From: Myxococcota bacterium
GTDB taxonomy: Bacteria; Myxococcota; SpSt-1050
Direction of reading: 5' to 3'
Assembly (NCBI GenBank): GCA_049969675.1
Contig: JBMFOP010000048.1
Location: 1 to 25,254 of the forward strand
DNA length: 25,254 bases
A program made the position numbers and the translations under genes. Positions 1,902 to 24,798 of the stretch are shown in pieces. The notes beneath the pieces were generated by a model. It saw nothing but the letters and a program-made list of their open reading frames with translations. It had not been told where the DNA came from and did not search any database. Position 1 is the stretch's first letter. Every line of letters starts with the position of its first letter.

Positions 1902-3908
1902 ATGAGATTTAAGATGTCGGCAGATGTAGCATTTGTGATCCTCTTTATAATGGTAATTATATGTATAGTAGTGCCTCTTCCGGGCTGGCTTCTGGATGTT
2001 TTAATTTCTATGAATATATCTGCTACAATATTGATTCTGATAATTTCACTTAATATATCATCAGCCGTTGAATTGCCTTCCTTCCCTTCTATCCTTCTTG
2101 TTACAACACTTTTTAGACTTGCACTTAATGTCGCATCTACACGTGCCATCCTCACCTGTGGTGATGCGGGGAGGGTTATCTCAGCTTTCGGAAATTTTGT
2201 AATCTCTGGAAATTACTTTGCCGGTGCAGTTGTATTCCTGATTATTACAATAATACAGCTCGTAGTGGTTACAAAGGGGGCAGAACGTGTGGCTGAGGTC
2301 TCAGCAAGATTTACATTAGATGCTATGCCGGGGAAGCAGATGTCCATAGATGCCGAACTCAGGGCTGGACATATAACTCTGGATGAGGCAATAAGAAGAA
2401 GGGCGAATCTCTCAGTTGAATCACAATTTTTTGGCTCAATGGACGGGGCAATGAAATTCGTCAAAGGAGATGCAATAGCGGGCATACTGATATCACTTAT
2501 AAATGTCATTGGAGGAATCTCCACCGGCACCATAATGAGGAATCTCTCAGTCTCAGAGGCAGTTCAAAGATATACTATTTTAAGTATCGGCGATGGGCTT
2601 GTCTCCCAGATCCCATCTTTGATTATATCTGTCTCTGCCGGAATCATTATAACAAGAATCTCTACTATCAAAAAGGCTGGTCTGGGGAAAGAGATATTTG
2701 TTAATCTTACAAAGAGACCTCTTACAATATTAATCGCTGCGGTCGTGGCCATAATCTTCTCTCTACTGCCTCACATCCCATTCCTTCCTTTCTTTTTAAT
2801 TGGCACATCCTTTATATTTGCTTACAGGAAACTTAACAACAGAATAGATGAGAGAGAGCCAGTAAGAGAGATGATTGAGACGACAAGACAGAATACAGAA
2901 AATCAGCCAGCAGAACAGAATACAGCTGAATCCATATCGTCATTTGCCGAGCCTCTCTCCCTTATTGTCTCTGAGGGAATTTCAAGAGAAGGTAGTATAG
3001 GGTCTGCTGAGGTAATTGTTAAAGATGTGCTTTCAACTGTAAGAAAGAGGCTCTTAAAAAGATACGGATACAGAATGCCGGGTGTAAAAGTTATAAAAGA
3101 TGATAGCGAGGAATTATTTTTTACACTCTCAATTTATGGGGTTGATATATATACATTTAGATGTGAAAAAGACCCCCTCTTTGCGATCAGAGGCAGATAT
3201 TCTGAAGGTGCCATTACCCAACTGGAGAATTTTAGATATCTTTACTACTCTGATGGGACAGATGAAGAGGTATTTGATTTAAAGATGATTATGATAGAAA
3301 TATTATTTACCCAGATATTGAAAAACATAAAAGATCTCTTCGGAATTCAGGAGACATCAGCTCTGATAGAGGAACTAAGTGGTAAATATCCAGCGCTTGT
3401 AAAGGAGGTAATACCAAGAGTAATAGGAGTCAATACCCTTTCAGAGATTTTAAAAAATCTACTATCCGAGCAGCTCTCAATCAGGAATATGAAGAGTATC
3501 CTTGAGACCATAGATAGGTATGCCCCTTTTGAGAAGAATCCAAATCTACTTTCAGAGTTTGTAAGGGTCTCTCTCGCAAGACAGAGCTGTATGGATTTCT
3601 CCGAAGACGGCAGGATGCGGGTCTATATACTTTCGCAAAACATAAATAAAATCATCTATGATTCCATTGCCAATATTCAGGGAGAGCAGGTGCTTTCAAT
3701 AAATCCAGAAGATGCGAGAAGGATTATTGAGGCCATAAAGAATGCAGTGAAAAACTCGGATTGCAGGCCGGTCATAATTACTGACTTTGAATTGAGGAGA
3801 TTTATCAGGAAGATCATTGAATATGAGATGCCATTTGTAGGTGTGCTTTCATTAAAAGAGATATCTCCCGATGTAAGAATAGAACCAGCCGGAACTATTG
3901 GTATCTGA
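1902..3908 (+). CDS. FHIPEP-family type III export gate protein (SctV/LcrD-like; FlhA family)
   Basis: 668 aa; hydrophobic N-terminal half with FPSILLVTTLFRLALNVASTRAIL, KGAERVAEVSARFTLDAMPGKQMSIDAELRAG, FFGSMDGAMKFVKGDAIAG and IGDGLVSQIP; cytoplasmic domain with FGIQET and LLSEQLSIRN; SD GGAGG upstream. Confidence 0.93.
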   Translation: MRFKMSADVAFVILFIMVIICIVVPLPGWLLDVLISMNISATILILIISLNISSAVELPSFPSILLVTTLFRLALNVASTRAILTCGDAGRVISAFGNFVISGNYFAGAVVFLIITIIQLVVVTKGAERVAEVSARFTLDAMPGKQMSIDAELRAGHITLDEAIRRRANLSVESQFFGSMDGAMKFVKGDAIAGILISLINVIGGISTGTIMRNLSVSEAVQRYTILSIGDGLVSQIPSLIISVSAGIIITRISTIKKAGLGKEIFVNLTKRPLTILIAAVVAIIFSLLPHIPFLPFFLIGTSFIFAYRKLNNRIDEREPVREMIETTRQNTENQPAEQNTAESISSFAEPLSLIVSEGISREGSIGSAEVIVKDVLSTVRKRLLKRYGYRMPGVKVIKDDSEELFFTLSIYGVDIYTFRCEKDPLFAIRGRYSEGAITQLENFRYLYYSDGTDEEVFDLKMIMIEILFTQILKNIKDLFGIQETSALIEELSGKYPALVKEVIPRVIGVNTLSEILKNLLSEQLSIRNMKSILETIDRYAPFEKNPNLLSEFVRVSLARQSCMDFSEDGRMRVYILSQNINKIIYDSIANIQGEQVLSINPEDARRIIEAIKNAVKNSDCRPVIITDFELRRFIRKIIEYEMPFVGVLSLKEISPDVRIEPAGTIGI

Positions 3909-7764: not shown

Positions 7765-10095
7765 TTACTGTTGCACACAGCTATTGCTATTCGGTACGCA
7801 GAGATTTACACCATTTACAGCCTTACAGGTAAAGCCTGTCGGACAGGCATCCTGTTCCTGTGGATTACAACCTGTCAAACAGAACATATCATTTCCGGTA
7901 TCAGGTACCTTAACACATCTATTTGGTGGATTTGGATTATTATAGTCTGGATTTCCACTGTTGCAATATGCATCATCAAAGCAGGGGACACAGAGCAGAT
8001 CTGTCATAGGAATACAGATTCCCTGATATAAAACACCAGACCCAAGATAGCTCTCATAACAGGCATAACCGGCCGGACAATCTGCATTTGATTTACAGAG
8101 GCTGGAACATTTGCCGTTATTTAGGCAGAGGTCATTTGCACAGGGTTTTTCTATACATCCCTCGTGACAGGCCTCATCTGTATTACATACAGTGCAATCA
8201 CCACCAAATCCAGCACCTTTCTCTGTAGGGGCTGAACAGTATGAATAGACCTTATTATTGATTGCATCAAATCCAGACATCTTACAGACCTCACCATTTG
8301 AGCAGTCTTTATCACCGTTGCACTCTTTGCCGGAGCCCGCAAGTGGGATACAGAAATTGAGCTGATTTACACTCTCATAACCTTCAGACAATGGTTGAGG
8401 CAAACATTTCCATACATAGTTGCCTGCATTATTATAATTGCAATCTGAACCAACATTATCACAGGCACCCGAGCAGTACCCTACTCTCAAGCATAGATTC
8501 GTTGTGCAGGAGAAGGATGCCTGACACTGCTCACCCGGTTTACTCGCGCCAGAATACTCTTTTGCACAAATGGAGATAGTATTATCATTATAGGTCTCTG
8601 GTCTGCTATAATCATCATTATCATTATTGCCAAATATAACCTTACATACCTCTCCAGAGACTTTGCAATCTGATGCCTTTTCACACTTTGTAAACTTATC
8701 ACCTTCATACACAGTCGGTATACAGATTCCCATATTTACGATAGTGCAGCCAGCCTGATCCAGACTCATACCTACATCACGGCATACCCCCTTAAATCTG
8801 TTTCCGTAGTCACAGGAGCAGTGCTCATCTGTGCAGTTGATATTCGCCACACAACGATCGTTTAGGCATTTGAGGCTGCAGCACTGCCCATCAGTTTTAC
8901 AGGACTCATTAATCTTCTTACAGGATGGATGACAGAAGTTGGCGCACTTCCCTTCAAGACAGAAGAGGGAACAACAATCATCATCTTTAATACAATCCTC
9001 TCCAGCCTTCTTCCCGCCCTTGCCGAGTTCGCAATTCTCTCCACATTTTGTATTTAAGCCCAGAATTGACTGTCCGGTCTTGTCAAGGGTAAAGCCCATC
9101 TGACACTTCTGATTCTCTCCACAGGTTAAATCGCCATAACAATCCGGTTTAAAGCGACTTGGAGAACAGGATGCGCAGTACTTCTTCTCTTCTACCTTAC
9201 CCTCATTTGAATTATAAATCTTAAACAATAGACATCTCTTATCTCCAACACAGTTTGAATCATCTGTGCACTGGTTATCATCTTTTATATCTGTGTTCTT
9301 AATATAACACCCCTGACAGATACTAGCCTGATGAGCCTCTGAATAGACACAATTTGCTTCACCCGGATAAGTACAATCCCTGTTATCATTACAATAGTTT
9401 ACACATCTATCAGTCTTGATACACATAGCTGTTCCATACTGGGCAGAGTTTAGACACTCATAACAACTCATACTATAACCACCTATGGTGCTTTTAATCT
9501 CTGAACAATCAGCAGATTTTTCGCACTTCATTGAACAGACCGAACCTTCTTTGTATAATCCATTGTCGTCCCTTTCACCCACACAATATGTCTCACCGGG
9601 CTTGCAGGCAACATTGCCGAGCTTATCACAGGGGGTGCCAGGACCACCGTTTTTCTGCTCACATTCACCCTCAGTATAAACACATATCTTCTTTGAACTA
9701 TCCAGTGAATCATATGTACAGCAGTAATTCTTCCCACCCGCAAAGCCAGCACAATCGCTATCAGATTTACACTCCTTTGAGCAATATGAATTCTTTATCT
9801 TTGCTACAAGACCATAGCAGAAGTTTGATTCACAGACATCATCAGATGCACAGAGTTCTCCATTTTTCTTAAGTGGTTTCTTACAGGTTTTTGTGGACTG
9901 ATTACATATAAGGCCCTCACAACAGTCCTCATTCTTTTCACAACCCTGATTGAGTGCAGAACACTCTGGTGTTGTATCTGCTGATGATGTGTCTGAGAGT
10001 GTGACATCCTTACTCCTATCAACGTTATCCGAGCAGGCAGAGAAAACCAATGCCATAAACATAAAAACTACAATTACCAATAAAACCTTTTTCAT
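7765..10095 (-). CDS. Cysteine-rich secreted lipoprotein of unknown function
   Basis: 776 aa; MKK plus hydrophobic core and lipobox FSA-C21; about 97 Cys by manual count, recurring C-x5-C and CC modules; SD AGGAGG at 10107-10102; own terminator. Confidence 0.88.
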   Translation of the reverse strand: MKKVLLVIVVFMFMALVFSACSDNVDRSKDVTLSDTSSADTTPECSALNQGCEKNEDCCEGLICNQSTKTCKKPLKKNGELCASDDVCESNFCYGLVAKIKNSYCSKECKSDSDCAGFAGGKNYCCTYDSLDSSKKICVYTEGECEQKNGGPGTPCDKLGNVACKPGETYCVGERDDNGLYKEGSVCSMKCEKSADCSEIKSTIGGYSMSCYECLNSAQYGTAMCIKTDRCVNYCNDNRDCTYPGEANCVYSEAHQASICQGCYIKNTDIKDDNQCTDDSNCVGDKRCLLFKIYNSNEGKVEEKKYCASCSPSRFKPDCYGDLTCGENQKCQMGFTLDKTGQSILGLNTKCGENCELGKGGKKAGEDCIKDDDCCSLFCLEGKCANFCHPSCKKINESCKTDGQCCSLKCLNDRCVANINCTDEHCSCDYGNRFKGVCRDVGMSLDQAGCTIVNMGICIPTVYEGDKFTKCEKASDCKVSGEVCKVIFGNNDNDDYSRPETYNDNTISICAKEYSGASKPGEQCQASFSCTTNLCLRVGYCSGACDNVGSDCNYNNAGNYVWKCLPQPLSEGYESVNQLNFCIPLAGSGKECNGDKDCSNGEVCKMSGFDAINNKVYSYCSAPTEKGAGFGGDCTVCNTDEACHEGCIEKPCANDLCLNNGKCSSLCKSNADCPAGYACYESYLGSGVLYQGICIPMTDLLCVPCFDDAYCNSGNPDYNNPNPPNRCVKVPDTGNDMFCLTGCNPQEQDACPTGFTCKAVNGVNLCVPNSNSCVQQ

Positions 10096-10714
10096 CTAAA
10101 ACCTCCTAAAAAATGGTTTTTACCCCAAAATGACCCGCTTAATAAAATATATATTACGGAGGTTGTCAAATATAAAAGTCCGGGATTAAATAACTGTCTG
10201 AAATTCCTGTCATAATCACTGCTGTCCAAAACAATATGCTCTGAGATGTTAACTATCTATTAAACCAGGGATTATGTATTGATAGATTAACATATCTAAA
10301 TCTTAAGACCGCCTTTTTTCGCTATCCATTAAAATGTGCTCCAATTTAAATAATCTTCAACAAAGACCACAAGTGCCCTGCTGGCGAAATGGGGAAGTAA
10401 AGCGTAGCCTCATAGTGCAATGCATAAATTCTTTATTCAATTAAGCCTATAATATTGATAAAACTGGATTCATTTTCAATTTTTATTTAAGACTCATAAA
10501 ATCTATGCAGTGCGAATCATCTGCTGAGCAATTAGAGGCAGGATGATTCTATTGTGATTATGCCGAAGGCGTCACACAAAAAAATTAACATCAAAATCTT
10601 ATAGTGCCGTTTAGGCTTATGCCTGTAAGGACTCATGCCGTGTAGGCAAAATGGCGGAGCGAAGCGACGCCTCGTAAAATCCTTCACCAAAAATTTATTG
10701 TGGGCAGATGTGTA

Positions 10715-10743
10715 TTGACTTAAAAAAATATTTTTACTATATA
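10715..10743 (+). promoter_or_regulatory. Possible sigma70 promoter for the tandem lyase gene
   Basis: TTGACT (10715-10720), 17 nt, TATATA (10738-10743); SD AAGGA before the ATG at 10793. The -10 box is imperfect and the region is AT-rich. Confidence 0.4.
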
Positions 10744-10792
10744 TCTCTCTGTCCTTTGAGACCTTAACCTATTTAAAGAAAGGAATACAAAT

Positions 10793-13456
10793 ATGATTCT
10801 TCACGAACCTTACAAGATTAAATCAGTGAGAAATATCCCATTTACAACAATTTATGAGCGGAAGAAGATTCTAAGGGAGCACTTCTATAACATCACCCTG
10901 ATACCATCTGGCAAAGTTACATTTGATATGACTACTCAGGGTACTTCTGCTATGACACAGGAGCAGGTATCAGCCCTCTTTGTTGGAGATGAGGCATATG
11001 CAGGTGCTGTAAATTTCTATCATCTGGAAAAGGCGGTGGCAGATATCTTCGGTCTGAAATTTACCTGTCCCACTCACAATAAATATGGAAATCTGAAACT
11101 TTTGACCTCAATCTTTGTAAAAGAAGGTAAGATGGCTGCCTCAAATACCATCTTTCCCAAAGAGTTAATAGAATATTACAAAGGAGAGTTCTTTAAAATA
11201 AAATCAAAAGTTGAGAATGGAATATCAAGGCTGGATATAACAGATATAAAACAACTCTCAGATAGGAAGGGGCAACTGGCATATATCTACATTGACCTTC
11301 GTTCTGATGAAGGTATAGCGGTGGACATAAATGATATACAGGAGATCTGCAGGCTTTTGAAGGATTCAGGTATCCCTTTCATTATTGATGCAAGCAATAT
11401 AGTACTCTGGGCTAATGTCATTAAAAACTCAAATACTGCCCTCTCTTCAAAGCCCATTTCTGAAATAATAAAAGAGACCGCTGCCCTCTCTACTACAGTA
11501 GTGGTAGATGCAGGACAGGATATAAAGAGCAATGTGGGAGGATTTATCGCTACGAACAACCCCAAATTTCACGAGGCTCATCAGAATGAGGTGGTAATCT
11601 ATGAGGGGCTTCATACTTATGGTGGGATGGCTGGAAGGACGATGGAGGTTGTTGCTGTTGGTTTGAGAGATATGATTGTTGAAAATGATGTAATCTGGTA
11701 TCATCAGCAGATAGAACTCCTCTCAAATCTACTTAAAGAGAACGGTGTTGCACATTATAAAGGGATAGATGGTATATATCTTGAGACCGACAAAATACTA
11801 AATCACATTAAGGAGAATAGGGTTCATACACTCGCCGCTGCGCTATACCTCAAGTCTGGAATCAGGGCACATATAGGTGGGAGATATCTTGATTCAGAGA
11901 TTCTACCAATACTTCTACCGAGAAGAGCTCTGTTGAATACACAGGTTGCTCAGATTGCGGAGGCGATCATTGAATTGTGTAAAGAGGCAACAGTGATTAC
12001 ACCACTTATGCTTACCAATAAGCCATTATATCATAATGAGGCGGTATTTGACTGGCTTTTACCCATAATTAAACCTTATGAATTTACCTGTGAGCCTTAT
12101 ATAATTCACTCAATTGAAAGAATCGCCATGAAGAGTATTGAGGAGAGGAGGAAGGCGATTGAGGATGCTGGTTATAATACATTCCTTTTGAAGATGGAGG
12201 ATGTTACAATAGATTTATTGACTGACTCCGGTACCGCTGCAATGAGTGTGGAACAGTGGAGGGCGTATCTGGGGGCACAGGAGACACCCAATACATCAGA
12301 TGCATATTTAGATCTCGTAGAGACCGCACAAAGAATTTATGGATACAAATATATTATCCTCACCCATCAGGGAAGGGCGGCGGAACATATTATGTCACAG
12401 ATGTTTATCAGACCCGGTGACTATGTCCCCGGAAATATGTACTTTACAACCACAAAACAACATCAGGAGATGGCTGGTGGAATATTTGTAGATGTTATAG
12501 TTGACGAGGCAAATGACACTGAATCAGAATTTGAATGGAAAGGCAATGTGGATATGAAGAAACTTGCCGATATCTATGATAAGGCAAAATCTGAGGGGAA
12601 GAGACTCGCATACATCTCCTTTGAGTTCAATGTAAATCTTGCTGGTGGTCAGCCGGTCTCAATGGATAATATGAAGGCGGTATATGAATTTTGCAAACCG
12701 AGGGGGATCCCGGTCTTCTTTGATGCAACCAGATGTGCAGAGAATGCAATATTTATCAAACAGCGAGACCCACGATATAGAGATGCATCAATAGAGGATA
12801 TCTTACTTGAGATGTTCAGTTATGGAGATGGTGCTACAATCTCTGCAAAGAAGGATATGCTTACAAATCTCTCCGGTGCACTGATTTTTAAAGATAATGA
12901 GCAGTGGTATAGAGACGCGCTGAGGATGCTCCAGATATTTGAGGGGAGCCATTCGAGCGGTGGGACATCTGCCGGAGATATGGCAACACATGCACAGGGA
13001 TTGCGAGAGATGGTAGATGAGAGATATCTGAGGGCGAGAGTTGAGCAGGCAAGATATCTTGGAAGACTTCTAACTGAAGCAGGGATACCTATCGTTATGC
13101 CCCCGGGAGGACACGCCATCTTTCTGGATGCAAGGAAGTTTCTTCCGCATCTGGACCAGGACCAATTTCCTGCTCAGACACTGGCCGCTCACATCTTTAT
13201 TGAGACCGGGGTTCGGGCGATGGAGAGAGGGAATGTAAGTAAGGGGAGAGACCCAAAAACGGGAAAGAATTACAGGCCAAAACTGGAACTTGTGAGACTC
13301 ACAATACCAAGAAGGGTGTATTCACTTGACCATCTGAAGGCTGTGGCGGAGGGAATTATCAAGCTCTACAAAAAACGAGATACCATCCGGGGGCTGGAAT
13401 TTGTATACGAACCAAAGGCACTGCGATTCTTCCAGTCCAGATTCAGATTGGTCTGA
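10793..13456 (+). CDS. Tandem-duplicated beta-eliminating lyase (tyrosine phenol-lyase/tryptophanase family), two homologous halves
   Basis: 887 aa; both halves begin with EPY(K/I)I(K/H)S (aa 5 and 434). The C-half has IDLLTDSGT, THQGRAAE, GNMYFTTT, FDATR, SAKKD, GGHA, MERG, RLTIPRRVY and LRFF. The N-half has GDEAYAG and YEGLHTYGGMAGR. Confidence 0.93.
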   Translation: MILHEPYKIKSVRNIPFTTIYERKKILREHFYNITLIPSGKVTFDMTTQGTSAMTQEQVSALFVGDEAYAGAVNFYHLEKAVADIFGLKFTCPTHNKYGNLKLLTSIFVKEGKMAASNTIFPKELIEYYKGEFFKIKSKVENGISRLDITDIKQLSDRKGQLAYIYIDLRSDEGIAVDINDIQEICRLLKDSGIPFIIDASNIVLWANVIKNSNTALSSKPISEIIKETAALSTTVVVDAGQDIKSNVGGFIATNNPKFHEAHQNEVVIYEGLHTYGGMAGRTMEVVAVGLRDMIVENDVIWYHQQIELLSNLLKENGVAHYKGIDGIYLETDKILNHIKENRVHTLAAALYLKSGIRAHIGGRYLDSEILPILLPRRALLNTQVAQIAEAIIELCKEATVITPLMLTNKPLYHNEAVFDWLLPIIKPYEFTCEPYIIHSIERIAMKSIEERRKAIEDAGYNTFLLKMEDVTIDLLTDSGTAAMSVEQWRAYLGAQETPNTSDAYLDLVETAQRIYGYKYIILTHQGRAAEHIMSQMFIRPGDYVPGNMYFTTTKQHQEMAGGIFVDVIVDEANDTESEFEWKGNVDMKKLADIYDKAKSEGKRLAYISFEFNVNLAGGQPVSMDNMKAVYEFCKPRGIPVFFDATRCAENAIFIKQRDPRYRDASIEDILLEMFSYGDGATISAKKDMLTNLSGALIFKDNEQWYRDALRMLQIFEGSHSSGGTSAGDMATHAQGLREMVDERYLRARVEQARYLGRLLTEAGIPIVMPPGGHAIFLDARKFLPHLDQDQFPAQTLAAHIFIETGVRAMERGNVSKGRDPKTGKNYRPKLELVRLTIPRRVYSLDHLKAVAEGIIKLYKKRDTIRGLEFVYEPKALRFFQSRFRLV

Positions 13457-13683
13457 TTAATAAGTCCTCCCCGCTCATCCGAGATAAGGTTTAATTTTAT
13501 TAGTAATTTCATCTAACTCTTGATAATTAAAAGTACTGCCTGATAGATTATTTGAAACGACAATTATATTCCCGGCACCTTTTGACTGAAAAATATCATA
13601 ATTTTCATTATACCTCATTTTATTTGCTCAACATTAATCATTTCCCGGATACTGTCAAGTAAAATGAATGTGGTTTATTTATT

Positions 13684-16600
13684 CTACTCCTCTATTATAA
13701 ACTCCACTCTCCTATTTATCTCTCTATTCTTCTTTGATGTGTTTGGGACAAGCGGTTTATCAGGTCCATACCCCTTTGCTTCAAGAAGTTCTGCTGGTAT
13801 TCCTACCTTTATAAGGTAGGCTTTTACAGCATCTGCTCTATCCTGTGAAAGCCTCAGATTCTTCTCCCTCAAACCAATGTCATCCGTATGACCCTCTATT
13901 TTTACCTTCTTTATTTTTGGATTGGCATTTATCACATCTGCTATCATATCCAATATGATTGTGGAACTCTTATCTATCTTTGCTGAATTGAGGGCAAACT
14001 GTATCTTCTTCTTTAATGTTATCTTATTCTGCTCCACCACTATCAATTGCTCCTTAGGTCTATCTTTTAGCATAAGTTCAACCGTAGCATCTCTCTCCTC
14101 CTCTACCTCTACTACTTTCCCAACAGATAATTTATCTGGAGCCTTCGCCACCACATACCACTTCCCCACATCAAGTCTTGATGTATATATCCCGTCTGAT
14201 GTCCTCTGTATCTTTATCTCCCTATCTCCGCTTACTGCTGTCACCTCTGCATCATTTATATTCCGCCTCTTCTCATTCAACACCTGAACTATTATACTCC
14301 CCTGAATAATCTTCTTCTTGAGAAAGACCTTGAGATTTGTAACCACATCCTTCGTTACCTGTGCACTTACCTTCTTCTCAAAATATCCATCCTTTGAGAG
14401 TGCCAGATTATATATCCCAACATTTAATGGCAGAGTCTTAAATTCCCCACTCTTTGAATCAGTTGCAAGATTCGGCAAATCCGTATTCTCTATCCTGATT
14501 ACCACATTCCCAAGCGGATTCTCTGTCTCCTCGTCATATACTACTCCCTTAATTATTCCAGTCTTTACAACTGGCTTTGGTGTCTCTACTACCTTCGGCT
14601 TCTCAACCACCCTCTCCACTATCTGCGGCTTTGGTGTCTCCATCCTATCGGTTGCAAACATCACTCCGAGTATTACTCTAAAGAGTGGTGAACCATAACC
14701 GGGTAGGATCCCTCCTCCAACTCCTCCTACCACCCCAATCCCATTGGCAAAGAAGTATCTTGAGGATAGTAACCATTCGAGCGGATTCTGCTCCTCATAC
14801 TGAAATGGATATACTGCGCTCGTCGCCCCTGAGAGGTCAAACCCTAATATCAGTTCCCTCCCCTTCAACATCAACGGATATGTCACTCCTATATTATACA
14901 CTATCTCATCATCATATATCTGATACAGCTTCTCTCCAAGTCTCGTCCTCTCCCTAAATGTATAACCAAGATTTAAGGCAAGCATCATCTTAAATGGAAA
15001 GACCCTTGAAAGCGTAAATCTTGGCGAGAATGCAAATCCGGGCTCACCCAGCATATTCTTTTCATCTCCAGACGGAATAATCACTGCTGGTACAAATCCA
15101 AATGATACAGGATATCTCCTCCTCCCGAATACCTCCTCTGTCTGTGATAAGAATCTGAGCTTGGGGATCAGCCAGATGTCCCCAAGCCCTCCCTGCGAAA
15201 GCCCCTCTCTTGCACCTTCGTAGAGTCCGCTCTTACCACTCTGAAAGAGTGCCATCGGAAGCACTACACCTCCCTCAAAATACGGGGCAAATGAGTAGCT
15301 CGCAAACAGGTCTGCATCCATTCTGTAATCTACAAGGTCATCCACCTTATTGTGTTTCTCATCTACAAATACCAGCGGGCTCTTTACATAAAATAGATAG
15401 AAACCAATGTTTAGATTATTGCTCTCAGAGATCTCGGCAGATTCCGTAATCATCGTCCCCTTAGAATCTACCGTAGAAATTAGACGATTGGTATTTACCT
15501 GCTGGGCATAGAGCGGGAGTGAGATTAAGAGTATCAGAAGCCAAAGCCACCTCCTGCTTATTGAACTGACTGCAAAGATTAATCCAACCACTACAAGCAA
15601 TATCTCAAGAACTCCAGAATCACTATCCTTTTCACTCTCATCCATCACTGAACATTGACATCCTCCTCCCATAACCCTACCTATCAGATTGTGCCTGCTA
15701 CCAGCATCCAGACTTATTATATCCTGCGAAGTAGCGACATCCGATATATTAGCATCCTCACCCATTACATCAATAGTCGCATCGGTAGCCATCACATCGG
15801 CTGTATCTATTGAGGTATCTCCTATATCCGTTATTATATCTTCACCGGCATCCTCTAAATCTGTGATCGCATCGCTTGTAGCATCCTCTACATCAATCGT
15901 GGCATCCAATACAACATCCTCAACGACATCAGGCAATTCAGCATCTGTCTCTGCATCCGTTCCCGCATCGGGACCAACACAGTCTGGAAGATTTTCATCA
16001 ATGAGTCCATTACAATTATTGTCTTTTCCATCACACACCTCGGGAACAGGATCAATTGCACCTATGCATTCGCCTATCTTCCCTCCTACACAGGTCGCAA
16101 TACCCATCCTGCACTCACCCACATTGGTGCCACAGGGTATTGTGATATTTTCATCATATTCACCGTTGCAGTTATTATCAAGTCCATCGCACTTCTCATA
16201 TGTCGGTTTTATTTCACCGAGACACTCTCCCCATACACCGTTTTTGCATACCCTGACTCCACTCTTACATTCGCCAATATCTGAGCCACATTTTGAATAG
16301 AGATTCTCATCAGTCTCTCCATCGCAGTCATTATCCTTGTTATCACAAATCTCTGCTGTTGGGTTGATTGCGCCAGAACAGACTCCCCACTGTCCATTTA
16401 CACAGTTCTGAATTCCCTTCTGACATTCACCCTCATCGGTACCACACTCCTGAGTCTCACCGTCATCGCAGGCACACCCTTCATCAATCTGACCATTGCA
16501 GTTATTGTCAAGCCCATCACCACATATCTCATCCTTTGGACCAATAGCGCCTATACATTCTCCCCACCGACCATCTTTGCAGCTCTGAAGACCCGTTCTA

Positions 16601-19600
16601 CAGCTCCCTATATTAGAACCACACTCTCTTACGAGATACTCATCAATCAATCCATCGCAGTCATTATCCAGTCCATCGCAGACTTCCTCCTGTGGGCCTA
16701 TTTCATCCATACAATTTGTATAGATGCCGTTTATACATTTTCTATAACCGGCCCTGCACTCTCCAACAGAGGAGCCGCACGGAACTGTAAGTCCCTCATC
16801 TACCTCTCCATTGCAGTTATTATCTTTACCATCACATACCTCTGGTGTGGGCTTTACCTCTCCAAGACAGGGTCCCCACTTTCCGCTCGAGCAGACCTGA
16901 ATACCCCGCTTGCATTCTCCAACATCTGTTCCGCATAGTTGTGTATTGCCGTCAATACAATCACAACCTTCATCCACCACCCCATCGCAATTATTATCCA
17001 GACCATCACAGACCTCGGGCTGTGGTCCTATCTCTCCCACACAGGCTCCCCATACACCGAAATAGCAGGTTCTTATACCTGTCCTACAGATTCCTGCATT
17101 GCTGCCACATACCGTTGTGATGCCCTCATCTACAAGCCCATCACAGTCATTATCCTTCCCATCGCATACTTCCTCGGTTGGTCCTTTTCCCCCTACACAA
17201 TCCGTATATCTTCCATTTACGCAATAAGATATCCCCTGAGTGCACTCACCTACAGAAGAGCCACAGCTCTGGTAAAGGTCTTCATCAGTCTCGCCATCGC
17301 AGTCATTATCCAGACCATCGCATACCTCAATAGACGGTCCTGTTGCCCCAACACAGGCGCCCCACTGTCCACCCACACAGGTCTGCACTCCCGCCTTACA
17401 CTCTCCGATATTGGAACCACAGGCTCTCTGCTCACCATTTACTGCACAGGCACACCCACCATCTACATTATCCACGACTCCGTCACAGTCATTATCAAGC
17501 CCATCACATACCTCAGGTTGTGGTGTTATCTCATTTTCACAATTCCCCCAATTCCCACCCACACAGGTCTGAATTCCCATCTTACACTCCCCTACATTTG
17601 AACCACATAGTCTCGTCAGAAATTCATCTATCTGGCCATCGCAGTCATTGTCAAGCCCATCACATATCTCAACGGACGGCTTTATCTCTCCGAGACAATT
17701 GCCCCAGGAGCCATTCACACATATCTGAGTTCCACTCTTACATTCACCAATATTGGAGCCACACTCTCTTATCAGATTCTCATCTATCTCCCCATCGCAA
17801 TCATTGTCCAATCCATCGCAGACCTCAAAAGAAGGGTCAATCTTACCAATGCAGATGGTCCAGCTCCCTGCTGAACAGGTAGAGAAGCCTTTTTTACAGA
17901 CTCCAAGGTTGTAATCACCACACTCAACCACCAGATTCTCATCAGTTGAACCATCGCAGTCATTATCCTCATTATCGCATATCTCTGGTTCTGGATTGAC
18001 CGCACCTTCACATAAACCCCAGACTCCACCTGTGCAGGTCTGCAGTCCCTGTCTGCATTTCCCAATATTCAGGCCACAGGCTCGTGTCTGACCGGGAGTA
18101 CAATCACAACCTTCATCTATCGTCCCGTTGCAATTATTGTCAAGCCCATCGCAGACCTCTGGCTGTGGCAAAATTCCTCCGATACAGCTACCCCATACAC
18201 CGTTATTGCAGGTCTGGGTACCTTCTTTACAGATACCAATATTGTTTGAACAGCTTCTTGTCAGAGATTCATCTACAAACCCATCACAGTCATTATCAAA
18301 TCCATCGCATATCTCCTCTGTTGGCTCGGTCGCCCCAATACAGGGTCCCCACTCACCTGAGGCACATCTCTGATAACCGTAGGTACAGACACCTACATTC
18401 TTCCCACAGACCTTCGTGAGGTCCTCATCTGTAAGCCCATCACAATCATTATCTTTATTGTCACACAACTCCTCAGAGGGCTCAATATTCCCCACACAGC
18501 TTCCCCACTGCCCATTCTCACAGGTCTGGGTTCCGAATTTACACTCACCTTTATTGCTTGAGCCACAATTCCTTGTCTGCCCATTTATACAGCTGCAACC
18601 CTCGTCTGTAGCATTATCGCAATCATTATCTTTGCCATCACAAATCTCCTCAGCCGGTTTTATTTCACCCACACACTCAGAAGAATAGACGCCATTTATA
18701 CAGTATCTGAACCCGCCTCTGCACTCGCCAATATTTACTCCACAGGGAATCTTTAGTTGCCCGCCGGTATCAGATTCATCTGTATTCCCATCACAGTCAT
18801 TATCTTTGCCATCGCATATCTCGGGCTGTGGGTCAATTGAGCCTGTGCATTGCCCCCACTTTCCATCAGAACACCACTGTGTCCCCTGTTTACAATTTCC
18901 TATATTTGAGCCGCAGGGACGGGACTGCCCATCAATACAGGAACATCCCTCATCTGTAACACCATTACAGTTGTTGTCTTTGCCATCGCATATCTCGGTG
19001 GATGGGAGGACAGCACCCACACACTCAGTTGAATATACCCCATCAATACAAATCCTTCTTCCTTTCCTGCACTCGCCGATATCTGTTCCACACTCCATAG
19101 AGAGCGGTGATCCGTTATCATCCTCATCTATCTGTCCGTCACAGTCATTATCTTTATTGTCACAAATCTCAACAGTTGGTCCCCGTGCACCAATGCACTC
19201 TCGCCACTGCCCGTTTACACACTGCTGTATACCAGCGACACACTCACCTACATCTGTCCCACAGGGTCTGAATAGCCCGTTATCAATTATACCATCGCAG
19301 TCATTGTCAAGTCCGTCACAGACCTCTGGCTCTGGCCAGGTTGCACCATTACAGGTGCCCCAGACTCCATTCTCACAAATCTGTGTCCCCTGTCTGCATA
19401 TCCCCTGAGTATATCCACAGGGTCTGGATGTACCGCTCTGGCATTCACATCCCTCATCAATTGTTCCATTACAATTATTGTCAAGCCCATCACAGACCTC
19501 GGCTGTCGGCTTTACCTCTCCCACACAATCGCCCCAGTTGCCACCAATACAGGTCTGGATCCCGGTCTTACACTCACCTATACTTGAGCCACAGACCCTT

Positions 19601-22600
19601 GTAAGTCCCTCGTCTACCTCCCCATCGCAGTCATTATCAAGTCCATCACAGATCTCAGAACGTGGTCCAACTGAGCCCGTACAGGCTGACCATACACCAT
19701 TTGAACATACCTCAATTCCAGTCTGGCACTCACCCAGATCAGTTCCGCAGACCCTTGAGAGCGTCTCGTCAATCAACCCATTGCAATTATTGTCAATGTT
19801 ATCACAGATCTCCTGTACTGGTTCAACATTACCTATACAGGGACCCCAATTGCCGGCTGTACAATACTGAATTCCGTATTTGCAGGCTCCTATATTAGAA
19901 GAACCACACTCTCTTGAGACACCATTATCAGTTTCACCATCGCAATCGTTGTCCTTATTGTCACAGATTTCTGGAGCCGGATTTACCGCCCCGACACAGG
20001 GACCCCACTGACCATTCTCAAGACATGTCTGAACGCCTGCTTTACATTCACCAATATTTGAACCGCAGGGTTTGGTCTCACCAGTTATACAACTACAACC
20101 CTCATCGGTGGTACCATCGCAGTTATTATCTTTTCCATCACACTTCTCCTCAGATGGCATTATCCCCCCTTCACAGAGCCCCCAGGCACCACCAATACAG
20201 GTTTGAATACCCTGCCTGCACTCTCCTATATTGCTTGAGCAGGTCCTCGTCAATTCCTCATCAGTCTGACCATCGCAATCGTTGTCAAGCCCATCACATA
20301 TCTCCAGAGAGGGGTTAATTCCGCCCTGACACTCTCCCCAATTACCCGCAGAACAGGTCTGAATTCCAAATTCACACATTCCCACATTTGTTCCACAATT
20401 TCTCACAATCTCCTCATCTGTCTGTCCATCACAGTCATTATCCTTATTATCACATATCTCCGGAGTTGGATTTACTCCACCTTCACAGATACTCCACTGC
20501 CCATTTATACACATCTGGGTACCATACCTGCATTCTCCAATATTCAATCCACAGTTTCTGGTCTGCCCATTGATACAGGAGCAGCCCTCATCCACAGCAT
20601 TATCACAATCATTATCCAGACCATCGCAAATCTCCTCAGAAGGCCTTATCTCTCCAATACACTCAGTTGTATATTGCCCATTGATACAAATATATAGTCC
20701 CTTTCTACACTGCCCTATATCTGAGCCACAAGGGATAGATAGCAGTCCACCACCATCTGCCTCATCGGTAGTACCATCGCAGTCATTATCCAGCCCATCA
20801 CATATCTCTAACTGGGGATCTACCTTCCCATAACATTCCACTGACCAGTGGAAATCGATGCAAAGTTTTACGCCGGGCCTGCATATACCGACATTAGAAC
20901 CCGGACACTGGAGTGTATCACCAGGCCTGCACTCAACATTGTCTGAACCATCCAGCCAGTTTGGAATCCCATCATCATCTACATCACCTGTCAACTCAAA
21001 TACATCTGGATTATTGTCTCCATCAGAATCAAAGTCCCTGAAGTTCATAACTCCATCTCCATCGGCATCAGGATAGAGTGTATTGCAGATAGGGTTGGTA
21101 CAGAGTGAGAAGTTGGGTACATACTCAACATTATCAGATATAGTATCATTATCAGAATCCAGATCTCTGAAGTCCGGTACTCCATCGCTATCTGTATCCA
21201 CCGGTGGCTGGTGTGATTGTGTCCTCCCATATTCTATAGAATCCGGGATACCATCATTATCAGAATCTGTATCTCTAAAATCTGGTGTCCCATCATTATC
21301 CCTATCAGAGACATCGTATGGATTGCAGTTTGAATAGTTCTTACAGACCTCATAGAAGTCATCAATACCATCCCCATCTGTATCCCTGCTATTTGGATTT
21401 GAACCAATAGATACCTCCACACCGTTCTTAATCCCATCATCATCCATATCTCCGTCAGGACCATCATCATCACTCATATCCAAGTAATTTGGCTTACCAT
21501 CATTATCTATGTCTCCACCACCCTCTACCATATCAGGTTTACCATCTCCATCTGAATCCGTATCTATATAGTTCGGTACTCCATCATTATCACAATCAGT
21601 AAGTGGTCCAATACACTGACCGGATGTGGGATTGCGTTCTAATGAATCCAGAATTCCATCGTTGTCAGAATCTGTATCTCTAAAGTCATATTGCCCATCA
21701 CCGTCAGAATTTCTGGGTGGAAAATTATATGCACCAGAAGGTAGTCCGCTCTCAATTAAATCTGAGATTCCATCATTATCAGAATCAGTATCCAGAAAAT
21801 CTGGTACTCCGTCTCCATCTGTATCTACCGGGTGAGCGGGGTCACAGGGGCCCGAGGTCGGACAGACCTCAAATCTATCTCCTATATGGTCCCCGTCAGT
21901 GTCCGGGTTATTCTTATTAGACCCCGCGAGGTCCTCCTCAGCATTTGTAAGTCCATCATTATCGGCATCCGCAATTGGCCCATCCAGATCATTGGAATCC
22001 AGATAGTTCTGAATACCATCACCGTCAGAATCACCGGTCCCTTCAATCTGGTCAGACTTTCCATCATTATCTGAATCCCAATCCCTATAATTTGGAATTC
22101 CATCTCCATCTGTATCTGCTGTCCCTTCCACAGAATCCGGAATCCCGTCATTATCAGAGTCTGTATCTCTAAAATCTGGAATTCCATCTCCATCTGTATC
22201 TCTCGGCGCCTCATTTATAAAGACATTCCCGCGCTCTACAGAATCCGTGATCCCGTCATTGTCAGAATCAGGGTCTTTTGCATCTATCAATCCATCTCCA
22301 TCCGTATTCACTGGATTTAATGGATTACATACACCCACATACGGGCAGACCTCATAGTAATCGCTGATTCCATCTCCATCAGTATCTGCATTATGGGTAT
22401 CTGTCCCGATAGCCTGCTCAACCTGATTGGCAAGCCCATCCTCATCGGGGTCACCGATAGGACCATCTGTATCATTGTAATCCATATAATTTGGTGCCCC
22501 ATCTCCATCATTGTCATCCATACCTTCCAGATAATCTCCCTTACCATCTCCATCTGAATCCACATCCAGATAATTTGGAATCCCATCATCATCACAGTCA

Positions 22601-24798
22601 GTGAGAGGTCCCATACATTGACCCGATGGAGGGTTGTATTCTACAGAATCCGGTACTCTATCATTGTCAGAATCTGTATCCTGAAAGTTATATATCCCAT
22701 CATAATCAGAATCAAGGGGTGGTTGATTCAGAACCGAATTCCCTTTCTCCTCTGTATCTGGAATTCCATCTCCATCTGAATCCAGATCAAGTGCATCAGG
22801 TATTCCATCACTGTCATGGTCATAAGGATGTGCGGGGTCACTCCCCACCTCATACCTATCCAATATATTATCCCCATCAGAATCAGGGTTAAACGGGTCC
22901 ATACATATCGCAGTATCTGCATCAGAACAATAGCAAATACACCTCTCACCTGGCACGGCACAATTTACAGAGAGAACCCAATTGTTACAGGCTGGAACAC
23001 CTGTGGTTGCACCATTTGGGACCCCGTCATTATCGGAATCTCCACAGGGACCATCATTGTCATTAATATCAAGGTAATTTGGGTTCCCATCACAATCTAA
23101 ATCACCCAACCCCTCAACCAGATCTGATTTGCCATCTCCATCAGAATCTGTATCAGCTGAATTTATAAACCCATCATTGTCACAGTCCCAGAGCGGTGCA
23201 CCGGCCACACACTCCCCGACTGTTGTGCTATACTCCACCGAATCCAATATTCCATCTCCATCTGAATCCAGGTCTCTAAAATCTGGAATTCCATCTCCAT
23301 CTGTATCCACAGGGGGAGTCAGGAAGTCATCATCTCCGGCCTCAATGCTATCTGGAACCCCATCATTATCCGAATCTGTATCCAGATAATCTGCTATTCC
23401 ATCATTGTCGGTATCTGGGGGAACCGGGTCAAATCTACCCTCGTGTATATCACTTATCCAATCCCCATCCTGATCAACATCCGGCATCGCCTTGAGTTGT
23501 AACTGAAAATTGTCAAATGCATTGCCACCGCCAGTCTGAACCACACAGGGTTTATCGCATTGAACTCTGTAGAGAGTATTTCTATAATTTGCTGAAAGAA
23601 AGTCAATAAATCCATCTGCATTTAAGACCTGAGGAGATGGTGGAATCTGGCCTGCCCCCGCAAGGCGGGTAATTGTAACCGTAGTATTGTTATACATTGC
23701 AAATAGGACTGCACCCAGATTCTGTGTCTGGAAAATAATATCCAGACCGTCCTTATCTATCTGCTGTGCAATATCATCTCCCATATAATCAATTGTAGTT
23801 CCTCCCTGCGTATCTCCACACCAGACCTTTATATCTTTATCAGCCTTTACTCTATAATTTCTCGTTGCACCTGCTACTCCGAGATTATTTCTAAAATATA
23901 CCTCACCAGCATTTAGTGTCCTCAGACACTCTGTGGTACAACACCCATTTGCATCACAGTTTGCACAACTACCTGTAATATTCAAATAATTTCCTGCGCA
24001 GGTTCCATTGAAATCAAAGACAGAGATTTTTGTATTATTCTCAAAAGAGAATGCAGCAATATCTCCGCCACCCGTACTGAGTCTCATCACAGGACAGTAG
24101 AAAGTCTTCCCTGTATCAGTCCCCTTTTCAGAGGGATTTACATCATATCCATCAACTGCTGTAGCCACAATAGCGATATTTCCAGCGCTCTTAATCCAGG
24201 TCACATCGTGAAAACCTATATATGCCCTTATATCTCTAAACTCCTCTCTTGCCAGATTGAATTGCCCTCTGATATTTCCACTCTCATCCATAATACATAC
24301 ACCGCAGGTGCAGGTCGGGGCACTTGTATTACAGGCTGGGCCCGTTGTTGCATCTTCATAACCTATTGCCACATATATAGTCTCCGTCCTCGTAGCATCT
24401 CCAACAGGGGCGAAGAAGAAGAACTCTCTCCCCACTCTCACATTTGGGTCAATTGTTGAGTAAAAGACCGTACCAGAGTTTTCATGGGCAAAAAATGCAC
24501 TTCCACCACCCATCTGCGCAACAATAGGATGATTATAAGACCTGACTTTATAATGTCCTACAGGTAGAGTTACTATTTTAAGAGAACCTCTCCCGAGCAG
24601 AATTGGTCCCCAATGAAAACTTGGGTTATCAAGCGACCACACCTCCACATAGGTATTGTCGTACACCCCGGACAGATAGAGTCTCCCCCCAGTAGAACCT
24701 CCAAGCGGGTTATAGACATAATAGAGATTCCCTGCTGGATAAAGAAAAGATGGGAAAAATATAGAGATAAATACGACCAGTAAACATAGCCTTCTCAT
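13684..24798 (-). CDS. Giant repeat adhesin fused to a beta-barrel/OmpA-family outer-membrane protein
   Basis: 3704 aa; N-terminal signal peptide, about 410-aa non-acidic head, DxDxDG Ca-binding repeats, 30 ExCDxxDNxCxG repeats, acidic linker, GGGCQCS plus two hydrophobic helices, barrel-like region, and OmpA-like C-terminal domain (IQFALNS, IEGHTD, NLRLSQDRADAV, GYG, NRRVEF). Confidence 0.92.
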   Translation of the reverse strand: MRRLCLLVVFISIFFPSFLYPAGNLYYVYNPLGGSTGGRLYLSGVYDNTYVEVWSLDNPSFHWGPILLGRGSLKIVTLPVGHYKVRSYNHPIVAQMGGGSAFFAHENSGTVFYSTIDPNVRVGREFFFFAPVGDATRTETIYVAIGYEDATTGPACNTSAPTCTCGVCIMDESGNIRGQFNLAREEFRDIRAYIGFHDVTWIKSAGNIAIVATAVDGYDVNPSEKGTDTGKTFYCPVMRLSTGGGDIAAFSFENNTKISVFDFNGTCAGNYLNITGSCANCDANGCCTTECLRTLNAGEVYFRNNLGVAGATRNYRVKADKDIKVWCGDTQGGTTIDYMGDDIAQQIDKDGLDIIFQTQNLGAVLFAMYNNTTVTITRLAGAGQIPPSPQVLNADGFIDFLSANYRNTLYRVQCDKPCVVQTGGGNAFDNFQLQLKAMPDVDQDGDWISDIHEGRFDPVPPDTDNDGIADYLDTDSDNDGVPDSIEAGDDDFLTPPVDTDGDGIPDFRDLDSDGDGILDSVEYSTTVGECVAGAPLWDCDNDGFINSADTDSDGDGKSDLVEGLGDLDCDGNPNYLDINDNDGPCGDSDNDGVPNGATTGVPACNNWVLSVNCAVPGERCICYCSDADTAICMDPFNPDSDGDNILDRYEVGSDPAHPYDHDSDGIPDALDLDSDGDGIPDTEEKGNSVLNQPPLDSDYDGIYNFQDTDSDNDRVPDSVEYNPPSGQCMGPLTDCDDDGIPNYLDVDSDGDGKGDYLEGMDDNDGDGAPNYMDYNDTDGPIGDPDEDGLANQVEQAIGTDTHNADTDGDGISDYYEVCPYVGVCNPLNPVNTDGDGLIDAKDPDSDNDGITDSVERGNVFINEAPRDTDGDGIPDFRDTDSDNDGIPDSVEGTADTDGDGIPNYRDWDSDNDGKSDQIEGTGDSDGDGIQNYLDSNDLDGPIADADNDGLTNAEEDLAGSNKNNPDTDGDHIGDRFEVCPTSGPCDPAHPVDTDGDGVPDFLDTDSDNDGISDLIESGLPSGAYNFPPRNSDGDGQYDFRDTDSDNDGILDSLERNPTSGQCIGPLTDCDNDGVPNYIDTDSDGDGKPDMVEGGGDIDNDGKPNYLDMSDDDGPDGDMDDDGIKNGVEVSIGSNPNSRDTDGDGIDDFYEVCKNYSNCNPYDVSDRDNDGTPDFRDTDSDNDGIPDSIEYGRTQSHQPPVDTDSDGVPDFRDLDSDNDTISDNVEYVPNFSLCTNPICNTLYPDADGDGVMNFRDFDSDGDNNPDVFELTGDVDDDGIPNWLDGSDNVECRPGDTLQCPGSNVGICRPGVKLCIDFHWSVECYGKVDPQLEICDGLDNDCDGTTDEADGGGLLSIPCGSDIGQCRKGLYICINGQYTTECIGEIRPSEEICDGLDNDCDNAVDEGCSCINGQTRNCGLNIGECRYGTQMCINGQWSICEGGVNPTPEICDNKDNDCDGQTDEEIVRNCGTNVGMCEFGIQTCSAGNWGECQGGINPSLEICDGLDNDCDGQTDEELTRTCSSNIGECRQGIQTCIGGAWGLCEGGIMPSEEKCDGKDNNCDGTTDEGCSCITGETKPCGSNIGECKAGVQTCLENGQWGPCVGAVNPAPEICDNKDNDCDGETDNGVSRECGSSNIGACKYGIQYCTAGNWGPCIGNVEPVQEICDNIDNNCNGLIDETLSRVCGTDLGECQTGIEVCSNGVWSACTGSVGPRSEICDGLDNDCDGEVDEGLTRVCGSSIGECKTGIQTCIGGNWGDCVGEVKPTAEVCDGLDNNCNGTIDEGCECQSGTSRPCGYTQGICRQGTQICENGVWGTCNGATWPEPEVCDGLDNDCDGIIDNGLFRPCGTDVGECVAGIQQCVNGQWRECIGARGPTVEICDNKDNDCDGQIDEDDNGSPLSMECGTDIGECRKGRRICIDGVYSTECVGAVLPSTEICDGKDNNCNGVTDEGCSCIDGQSRPCGSNIGNCKQGTQWCSDGKWGQCTGSIDPQPEICDGKDNDCDGNTDESDTGGQLKIPCGVNIGECRGGFRYCINGVYSSECVGEIKPAEEICDGKDNDCDNATDEGCSCINGQTRNCGSSNKGECKFGTQTCENGQWGSCVGNIEPSEELCDNKDNDCDGLTDEDLTKVCGKNVGVCTYGYQRCASGEWGPCIGATEPTEEICDGFDNDCDGFVDESLTRSCSNNIGICKEGTQTCNNGVWGSCIGGILPQPEVCDGLDNNCNGTIDEGCDCTPGQTRACGLNIGKCRQGLQTCTGGVWGLCEGAVNPEPEICDNEDNDCDGSTDENLVVECGDYNLGVCKKGFSTCSAGSWTICIGKIDPSFEVCDGLDNDCDGEIDENLIRECGSNIGECKSGTQICVNGSWGNCLGEIKPSVEICDGLDNDCDGQIDEFLTRLCGSNVGECKMGIQTCVGGNWGNCENEITPQPEVCDGLDNDCDGVVDNVDGGCACAVNGEQRACGSNIGECKAGVQTCVGGQWGACVGATGPSIEVCDGLDNDCDGETDEDLYQSCGSSVGECTQGISYCVNGRYTDCVGGKGPTEEVCDGKDNDCDGLVDEGITTVCGSNAGICRTGIRTCYFGVWGACVGEIGPQPEVCDGLDNNCDGVVDEGCDCIDGNTQLCGTDVGECKRGIQVCSSGKWGPCLGEVKPTPEVCDGKDNNCNGEVDEGLTVPCGSSVGECRAGYRKCINGIYTNCMDEIGPQEEVCDGLDNDCDGLIDEYLVRECGSNIGSCRTGLQSCKDGRWGECIGAIGPKDEICGDGLDNNCNGQIDEGCACDDGETQECGTDEGECQKGIQNCVNGQWGVCSGAINPTAEICDNKDNDCDGETDENLYSKCGSDIGECKSGVRVCKNGVWGECLGEIKPTYEKCDGLDNNCNGEYDENITIPCGTNVGECRMGIATCVGGKIGECIGAIDPVPEVCDGKDNNCNGLIDENLPDCVGPDAGTDAETDAELPDVVEDVVLDATIDVEDATSDAITDLEDAGEDIITDIGDTSIDTADVMATDATIDVMGEDANISDVATSQDIISLDAGSRHNLIGRVMGGGCQCSVMDESEKDSDSGVLEILLVVVGLIFAVSSISRRWLWLLILLISLPLYAQQVNTNRLISTVDSKGTMITESAEISESNNLNIGFYLFYVKSPLVFVDEKHNKVDDLVDYRMDADLFASYSFAPYFEGGVVLPMALFQSGKSGLYEGAREGLSQGGLGDIWLIPKLRFLSQTEEVFGRRRYPVSFGFVPAVIIPSGDEKNMLGEPGFAFSPRFTLSRVFPFKMMLALNLGYTFRERTRLGEKLYQIYDDEIVYNIGVTYPLMLKGRELILGFDLSGATSAVYPFQYEEQNPLEWLLSSRYFFANGIGVVGGVGGGILPGYGSPLFRVILGVMFATDRMETPKPQIVERVVEKPKVVETPKPVVKTGIIKGVVYDEETENPLGNVVIRIENTDLPNLATDSKSGEFKTLPLNVGIYNLALSKDGYFEKKVSAQVTKDVVTNLKVFLKKKIIQGSIIVQVLNEKRRNINDAEVTAVSGDREIKIQRTSDGIYTSRLDVGKWYVVAKAPDKLSVGKVVEVEEERDATVELMLKDRPKEQLIVVEQNKITLKKKIQFALNSAKIDKSSTIILDMIADVINANPKIKKVKIEGHTDDIGLREKNLRLSQDRADAVKAYLIKVGIPAELLEAKGYGPDKPLVPNTSKKNREINRRVEFIIEE
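15505..15669 (-). other. Internal MYXO-CTERM-like sorting tag followed by an internal signal-peptide-like segment
   Basis: aa 3044-3098: GGGCQCSV, polar spacer, helix VLEILLVVVGLIFAVSSI, SRR, helix WLWLLILLISLP, then LYA|QQ. Confidence 0.7.
15975..20930 (-). repeat. 30 intragenic Cys-rich repeats (MopE-related/myxococcal ExCDGxDNDCDG type)
   Basis: Manual count of 30 units of about 52-62 aa, consensus E[IV]CDG[LK]DN[DN]C[DN]GxxDE...CGxNxGxCxxGxQxCxxGxWGxCxGxxxP; boundaries approximate. Confidence 0.9.
20935..23485 (-). repeat. Thrombospondin type 3-like acidic Ca-binding repeat region
   Basis: Dense DTDGDGIPDFRDTDSDNDG-type motifs arranged in about five super-repeats; boundaries approximate. 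Confidence 0.85.

Follow-up and report, generated by a model that had tools for sequence, protein, structure and literature searches.

Tyrosine phenol-lyase (TPL) is a textbook PLP enzyme, activated by K+ or NH4+ and used as an industrial catalyst for L-DOPA and non-natural tyrosines, and to our knowledge it is known solely as a symmetric tetramer. TPL (EC 4.1.99.2; Citrobacter freundii, Erwinia herbicola; PDB 2ez1, 1tpl, 1c7g; family model TIGR02618) has the PF01212 fold, which tryptophanase (TnaA, EC 4.1.99.1; E. coli, Proteus vulgaris; PDB 1ax4, 2c44) shares together with the shared-site design and the catalytic tyrosine supplied by the partner subunit. According to the available parts of PMC10170061, four subunits of ~456 aa form the canonical TPL homotetramer, which has four PLP sites and whose cycle passes through the Lys257 aldimine, Calpha deprotonation, and closure of the small domain; Arg381 and Thr124 contact the phenol hydroxyl, and Tyr71 is the general acid. 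The accessible text of PMC11301627 describes strain involving Phe448 and Phe449 along with roles for Thr124 and Arg381, and assigns the catalytic tyrosine (there Tyr-72) to the other chain of the catalytic dimer; that of PMC2770544 has E. coli TnaA Tyr74 and Tyr307 bonding the PLP phosphate of the neighboring subunit.

Two other systems place related folds in a longer chain. The glycine decarboxylase P-protein (single-chain GcvP or a GcvPA/GcvPB pair; PDB 1wyt, 4lgl) also has two modules in one chain, and by our alignment aa 26-369 of E. coli GcvP match Thermus subunit 1 and aa 485-878 match subunit 2. The P-protein modules are fold-type-I duplicates of which one has lost its active site and the second carries PLP, the same polarity as in the fused TPL described below. 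P-protein belongs to another family with another reaction, and its halves have diverged beyond BLASTP recognition whereas those of the fused TPL are still 26% identical; in further contrast, partial decay stages survive among the fused TPLs. No P-protein appears among the PDB or family matches of the fused protein, and the resemblance is confined to architecture. PF01212 domains in PKS/NRPS assembly lines (leinamycin LnmJ type; PDB 9cen) likewise place a TPL-like domain in a longer chain, and in the available portion of PMC3870968 they are without a Tyr71 equivalent, as is the C-half of the fused TPL. The LnmJ-type domains also lack Arg381 and have no partner module with Tyr71, whereas the fused TPL has the whole set, spread over two modules. 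We found no published description of a tandem TPL in the literature searched, which lay mostly outside subscription journals; given the P-protein precedent, the architecture appears to be new for the TPL family but not in kind.

Two unequal TPL-like halves in one reading frame

The window, by which we mean the whole 25,254-nt stretch of Myxococcota DNA analyzed here, carries on its plus strand at 10793..13456 an ORF without internal stop for an 887-aa tandem TPL-like product, the gene assignment being further supported by the homologue set described below; a putative RBS-like purine-rich run, read off the sequence at 10780..10785 (+), lies 7 nt 5′ of the ATG. Pfam PF01212 matches the protein twice, and the NCBIfam TPL and tryptophanase models are matched by both halves. 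The N-half (approximately aa 1-422; 10793..12058, +), a putative donor module without the PLP lysine, is 29.5% identical to the TPL of Pantoea ananatis (P0243), and the C-half (approximately aa 429-887; 12077..13453, +), a PLP- and substrate-binding module with a TPL-type pocket, is 53.7% identical to the same TPL and 39.4% identical to E. coli TnaA. Aligned to each other, the halves are 26% identical (E 4e-39). Against TIGR02618 the whole protein scores 828.5 bits as the sum of two domains, the C-half alone 617.4, and the N-half alone 221.1, with a curated cut-off of 720.7; scores against TIGR02617 and NF053783 fall below their cut-offs. Among solved structures the nearest are single-domain TPLs, which align with aa 431-886; the 22 matched PDB sequences include no tandem protein, and the TPL/TnaA clusters in the protein atlas are single-domain only. 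That ORF 10793-13456 comprises two TPL folds in tandem is confirmed at the level of sequence comparison. Database labels of plain tryptophanase or TPL hide this architecture, and the likely substrate is often misassigned.

Residues were numbered on the 456-aa P. ananatis TPL and on E. coli TnaA (P0241), to which both halves were aligned. The N-half retains E67 (Glu69) and Y69, the equivalent of the catalytic acid Tyr71 (codon 10997-10999), in donor loop 1 (aa 65-71; 10985..11005, +), as well as Y276 (Tyr291; codon 11618-11620) and L273 (TPL 288) in donor loop 2 (aa 271-285; 11603..11647, +), where aa 271-279, 281, and 282 are invariant in all of the best 120 homologues. E. coli Tyr74 and Tyr307 map onto the same Y69 and Y276. 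In the dead PLP-lysine segment (aa 239-243; 11507..11521, +), Q242 replaces Lys257 and D239 replaces Ser254; elsewhere in the N-half Arg100 has become Y98, Thr124 P122, Arg381 G362, Arg404 P372, and His343 D326, and Asp50 is deleted. The C-half retains K687, the predicted PLP Schiff-base lysine (Lys257; codon 12851..12853, +), together with T552 (Thr124), R812 (Arg381), R835 (Arg404), F879 and F880 (Phe448 and Phe449), D644, R647, N615, and H774; S722 stands in place of Tyr291, and P499 occupies the Tyr71 position in a remnant of donor loop 1 (aa 494-501; 12272..12295, +).

The likeness to canonical TPL is therefore divided: the C-half, 54% identical, has Lys257, Thr124, Arg381, Arg404, Phe448, and Phe449, and the N-half has Tyr71 and Tyr291. 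Canonical TPL consists of identical subunits that each carry both the PLP lysine and Tyr71; the fused chain consists of unequal halves with one lysine between them, and neither half has both residues, so that the protein would be TPL-like in its working yet is no canonical member. The C-half has the TPL signature (Thr124, Arg381, Phe448) and not that of tryptophanase (Asp, Ile/Val, His): the indole pair Asp133/137 and His458/463, of which Asp137 and His463 (E. coli numbering) set TnaA specificity, is Thr and Phe in the fused protein (T552 and F879), and R812 stands at TPL 381, where tryptophanase has no Arg. In the trees the C-halves come out as a single clade nested among the TPLs (support 98-100).

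Reciprocal residue loss and distribution of the family

We compared 146 full-length fusions, or 143 after removal of duplicates. Tyr71 and Tyr291 are present in 143/143 N-halves and 0/143 C-halves; Lys257, Arg381, Arg404, and His343 show the mirror image (0/143 N-halves, 143/143 C-halves), as very nearly do Thr124 (1/143 vs 143/143) and Phe448 (12/143 vs 141/143). Phe449 is kept in 141/143 C-halves, and the C-half PLP set is complete for K687, D644, R647, and R835 (143/143) and present in 142/143 for N615. At the dead lysine position Gln is found in 135/143 N-halves, and Asp239 in 142/143. The pattern is also intact in 34/34 clusters at 70% identity, and the reciprocally split residues are all present in 139/139 single-domain TPL-type proteins (144 sequences besides the reference, from which 5 without Thr124 were removed as being of tryptophanase type). 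Single-domain TPLs have 188 conserved positions, and those that only the N-half retains cluster at 67-73 and 283-300: no more than 5 residues away from either tyrosine, 11 conserved positions are N-only and none C-only, and elsewhere 10 are N-only and 108 C-only (Fisher p 1e-10, a value that overstates significance because neither columns nor sequences are independent). A chance origin of the residue split is excluded. As each half has only those active-site parts that are missing from the other, the two halves must cooperate in any working site.

These counts bear on a prior sequence-only reading of the window, which proposed duplication and fusion with reciprocal loss and a single PLP lysine per chain. 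Both proposals are borne out, by the alignment of the halves to each other and by the residue pattern and C-half lysine in 143/143 fusions; each of the motif substitutions it listed was recovered by alignment to TPL and TnaA, and its call for a search for homologues of similar length with the same reciprocal pattern yielded the 143 distinct full-length proteins, all conforming. Its statement that the C-half has lost both donated motifs needs a small refinement. Tyr71 of GDEAYAG is indeed gone from every C-half, but Glu69 is still present in 78/143; the EGxxxYGG loop is lost from the C-half at positions 288-291 only, Glu286, Gly287, Gly292, and Gly293 being kept by both halves.

The family is widespread. 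Among 8000 scored candidates of 487-1553 aa, 1768 matched, and of the best 120 of these, 119 span 838-928 aa at 49-87% identity, the other one being a fragment of the 887-aa protein itself. A genome scan found at least 80 loci, at least 26 of them with a full-length fusion; judged by their titles, the fusion-bearing genomes among the matches listed are all metagenome-assembled or uncultured and include Deltaproteobacteria, Bacteroidales, Planctomycetota, Acidobacteriota, Gemmatimonadota, Ca. Eisenbacteria, Gammaproteobacteria, Myxococcales, and Chloroflexota. The gene is present in two of three genomes from the same genus (the third is 85% complete) and in 11 of 301 sampled genomes of the phylum. 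We therefore regard it as scarcely credible that the ORF is an assembly or read-through artefact in which a decaying TPL pseudogene has been joined to an intact TPL, an outcome that the sequence-only reading had named as fatal and that the homologue set rules out. The longer N-half branches, indicating that the N-half evolves faster than the C-half, are all that speaks for such an artefact; against it stand the 143 distinct full-length fusions, found in several phyla among the named genomes, the sharing of most subclades by the N-half and C-half trees (quick or FastTree runs on subsets of 66, 72, and 31 rows, in which the N-half branches are long), the fact that no half is intact alone, and a contig of run X1, possibly the source sample, that crosses the junction.

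Two fused genes are damaged, one by a stop codon in frame where Tyr71 would be encoded (L134, G039:C172) and one by a frameshift in the N-half (L129, G101:C47); each is either a pseudogene or an assembly error. Among the best 120 and best 150 rows of the N-half searches there is no clear case of a split, two-gene form. Ten single-domain rows there have both tyrosines and lack the lysine, and were considered as stand-alone N-type genes; 9 of the 10 are 346-529 aa long with the fused-family signature and look like truncated gene calls, and P0341 groups with tryptophanases. We also note at least 14 single-domain representatives that have the PLP lysine and lack both partner tyrosines (P0290, P0292, P0297, P0312, P0321, P0325, P0334, P0336, P0337, P0339, P0350, P0382, and others) and three that lack the lysine as well (P0365, P0370, P0372). 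Such single-domain proteins without partner tyrosines could be other lyase subfamilies or heteromer subunits.

The proposed composite site and its wiring

We think it probable, from the distribution of residues, that the fused protein works as a TPL and has a single PLP site per chain, formed by the C-half pocket and the N-half tyrosine; folding, pairing of the halves, substrate, and activity are all read from sequence. The players that act within one subunit of TPL are all in the C-half and those supplied by the partner are all in the N-half, so that one C-half and one N-half together make a complete TPL site, and for the same reason the reciprocal site is empty on both sides. Gene duplication and fusion would thus have separated two roles that a subunit of the normal homodimer combines. 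The C-half would bind PLP through K687, with D644, F551, T646, R647, N615, T477, and R835 holding the cofactor and the carboxylate, and closure of its small domain would let T552, R812, F879, and F880 hold the phenol ring and bend it; the N-half, itself without PLP, would complete the site from outside, with Y69 protonating the ring carbon as general acid, Y276 holding the PLP phosphate, L273 lining the pocket, and E67 probably binding the activating K+. The predicted reaction is conversion of L-tyrosine to phenol, pyruvate, and ammonia. Each 887-aa chain would have a single live site, and an assembly of two chains probably two, as against four in the TPL tetramer. The genome of the window has a separate, intact single-domain gene of tryptophanase type on another contig (L001:1366-2736, G000:C64), and in each of the 11 fused-gene genomes of the phylum sample (this one and ten others, which as kin are not independent) one further single-domain gene is listed, in 11/11 cases of tryptophanase type; the fused protein therefore appears to occupy the place of a TPL. 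With donor and acceptor roles on separate modules, either side of the pocket could be mutated independently, which permits direct tests of inter-subunit catalysis and of the need for communication between partner sites.

The substrate need not be L-tyrosine: an alternative is a composite-site lyase acting on ring-substituted tyrosine, or on an S- or O-substituted amino acid. The C-halves have acquired 11 new near-invariant residues, including N814, K817, and R828 (beside the Arg381 loop), W582, and Y492, which could shift specificity; some lie by the lid loop and near the donor face, and gene context does not speak for tyrosine, the 34 loci compared having no shared neighbor beyond close kin and no conserved tyrosine-related genes. 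Leu and His at TPL 288-289 might also be taken to indicate another substrate, but both are common to 139/139 single-domain TPL-type proteins; moreover the phenol-gripping residues are all kept (Thr124 and Arg381 in 143/143, Phe448 and Phe449 in 141/143), and Tyr71, needed for C-C cleavage, is invariant. We consider a different substrate unlikely. The sequence-only reading further suggested that the dead site had been freed for an allosteric or other new role, and this finds no support in conservation: the mean top-residue share is 0.53 at 14 former pocket positions of the N-half vs 0.57 for the whole N-half, and 0.51 on the C-half face that would complete the dead site vs 0.73 for the C-half, so neither surface is conserved above the average of its half. 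There are new near-invariants in the former PLP subsite (S201, D239, N96, and Q242 in 135/143), as a pocket binding a regulator might have, but the simpler reading of the Ser-to-Asp change at the phosphate-binding position is a plug that mimics the PLP phosphate. Regulator binding is accordingly very improbable in our estimation, and S201, D239, and N96 may simply fill the old cofactor subsite.

The preferred composite site of one N-half and one C-half may be assembled within a chain or between chains. The junction (aa 421-435; 12053..12097, +), with conserved W421, P424, F431, and P435, is 15 residues long in 140/143 fusions, only about 4 residues beyond two canonical subunits placed end to end. 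In TPL and TnaA two catalytic dimers are joined via the N-terminal arms (available parts of PMC10170061), so that the N-terminus of a subunit need not sit on its catalytic partner, and strands 12-17 pair across the non-catalytic interface (PMC2770544, as available); where the termini lie within the tetramer is not given in the accessible portions of PMC13578870, PMC5805759, PMC7508748, or PMC7461572. A short junction of fixed length could thus join arm partners instead of catalytic ones, and we regard it as quite possible that the junction ties together non-catalytic, arm-interface partners and that each live site combines the N-half of one chain with a C-half from another. The enzyme would then be an obligate two-chain assembly and not a self-contained pseudo-dimer, a departure only from the single-chain picture of the sequence-only reading, the chemistry being as set out above. 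Arm residues are indeed divided between the halves, Lys9 and Lys11 being kept in N-halves and Glu14 and Trp61 in C-halves, but this split fits within-chain wiring equally well, and the junctions of early-branching fusions exceed the canonical length by 9-16 residues, so that they could have spanned to the catalytic partner before they became shorter.

Distant fusions and genomic surroundings

A profile search of 1.84 billion representatives, combined with a phylum scan, recovered more distant fusions at partial stages of decay, with the polarity constant throughout. In P0246 and L130-L133 the N-half has Glu for the lysine yet keeps Arg100, Ser254, and Glu14, and the C-half has Asp68 and Glu69 and lacks both tyrosines. 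In P0250, P0251, P0253, and P0255 the N-half still carries the lysine together with the two tyrosines; from the C-half, Tyr291 is missing in 4/4 and Tyr71 in 2/4, and the TPL specificity residues, Arg381 and the Phe448/449 pair, are absent. Two trees place the latter four proteins outside the TPL clade, but an AU test does not reject one clade (p 0.195), which leaves a second origin for them unproven.

Tentatively, and with more doubt than confidence, we suggest that the fusions form a living series that records how a symmetric enzyme with shared sites gives up half of them, each time with the same polarity and perhaps on two independent occasions. The series would run from lysine in both halves with C-half Tyr291 gone (P0250, P0255), through loss of the N-half lysine and the C-half tyrosines with arm and dimer residues intact (P0246, L130-L133), to the complete reciprocal loss seen in the 887-aa protein of the present window. 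Constant polarity would follow if the tethered C-terminus of the N-half blocks closure of its small domain, inactivating the N-half site first. The fused TPLs may thus illustrate the change from homo-oligomer to pseudo-heteromer with intermediates still extant.

The fused gene stands by itself, flanked on both sides by genes of opposite orientation that encode large cysteine-rich proteins. A promoter and terminator scan around it gave results at chance level, Rfam has no match within 9900-13800, and no RNA dataset is listed as containing the gene. Upstream, the intergenic stretch 10400-10730 of the window is a dispersed repeat with 25 matches in its own genome at 67-100% identity; several copies lie near contig ends, with raised depth and loose ends in run X1, and the repeat looks like a small non-coding mobile or REP-like element. 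Downstream, 13684-24798 (-) encodes a surface protein of 3704 aa; it contains numerous Asp-rich and Cys-rich repeats (PF11617, 16 stretches) as well as a carboxypeptidase-regulatory-like domain, with an OmpA domain at its C-terminus. On the other side lies a 776-aa Cys-rich lipoprotein-like ORF (7765-10095, -) with no Pfam match, a relative of which adjoins the fused gene at three further loci (L011, L092, L093). Immediately upstream of the fused gene of one Ca. Eisenbacteria genome (L025:4572-8634) is a single-domain gene of tryptophanase type. Farther away, at 1902-3908 (+), the window has a FHIPEP-family (FlhA/SctV-like) export-gate gene with no flagellar or secretion neighbors within the window; it lies between genes for an Rrf2 regulator and for an adenylosuccinate-lyase-like protein, the second of which was identified by eye.
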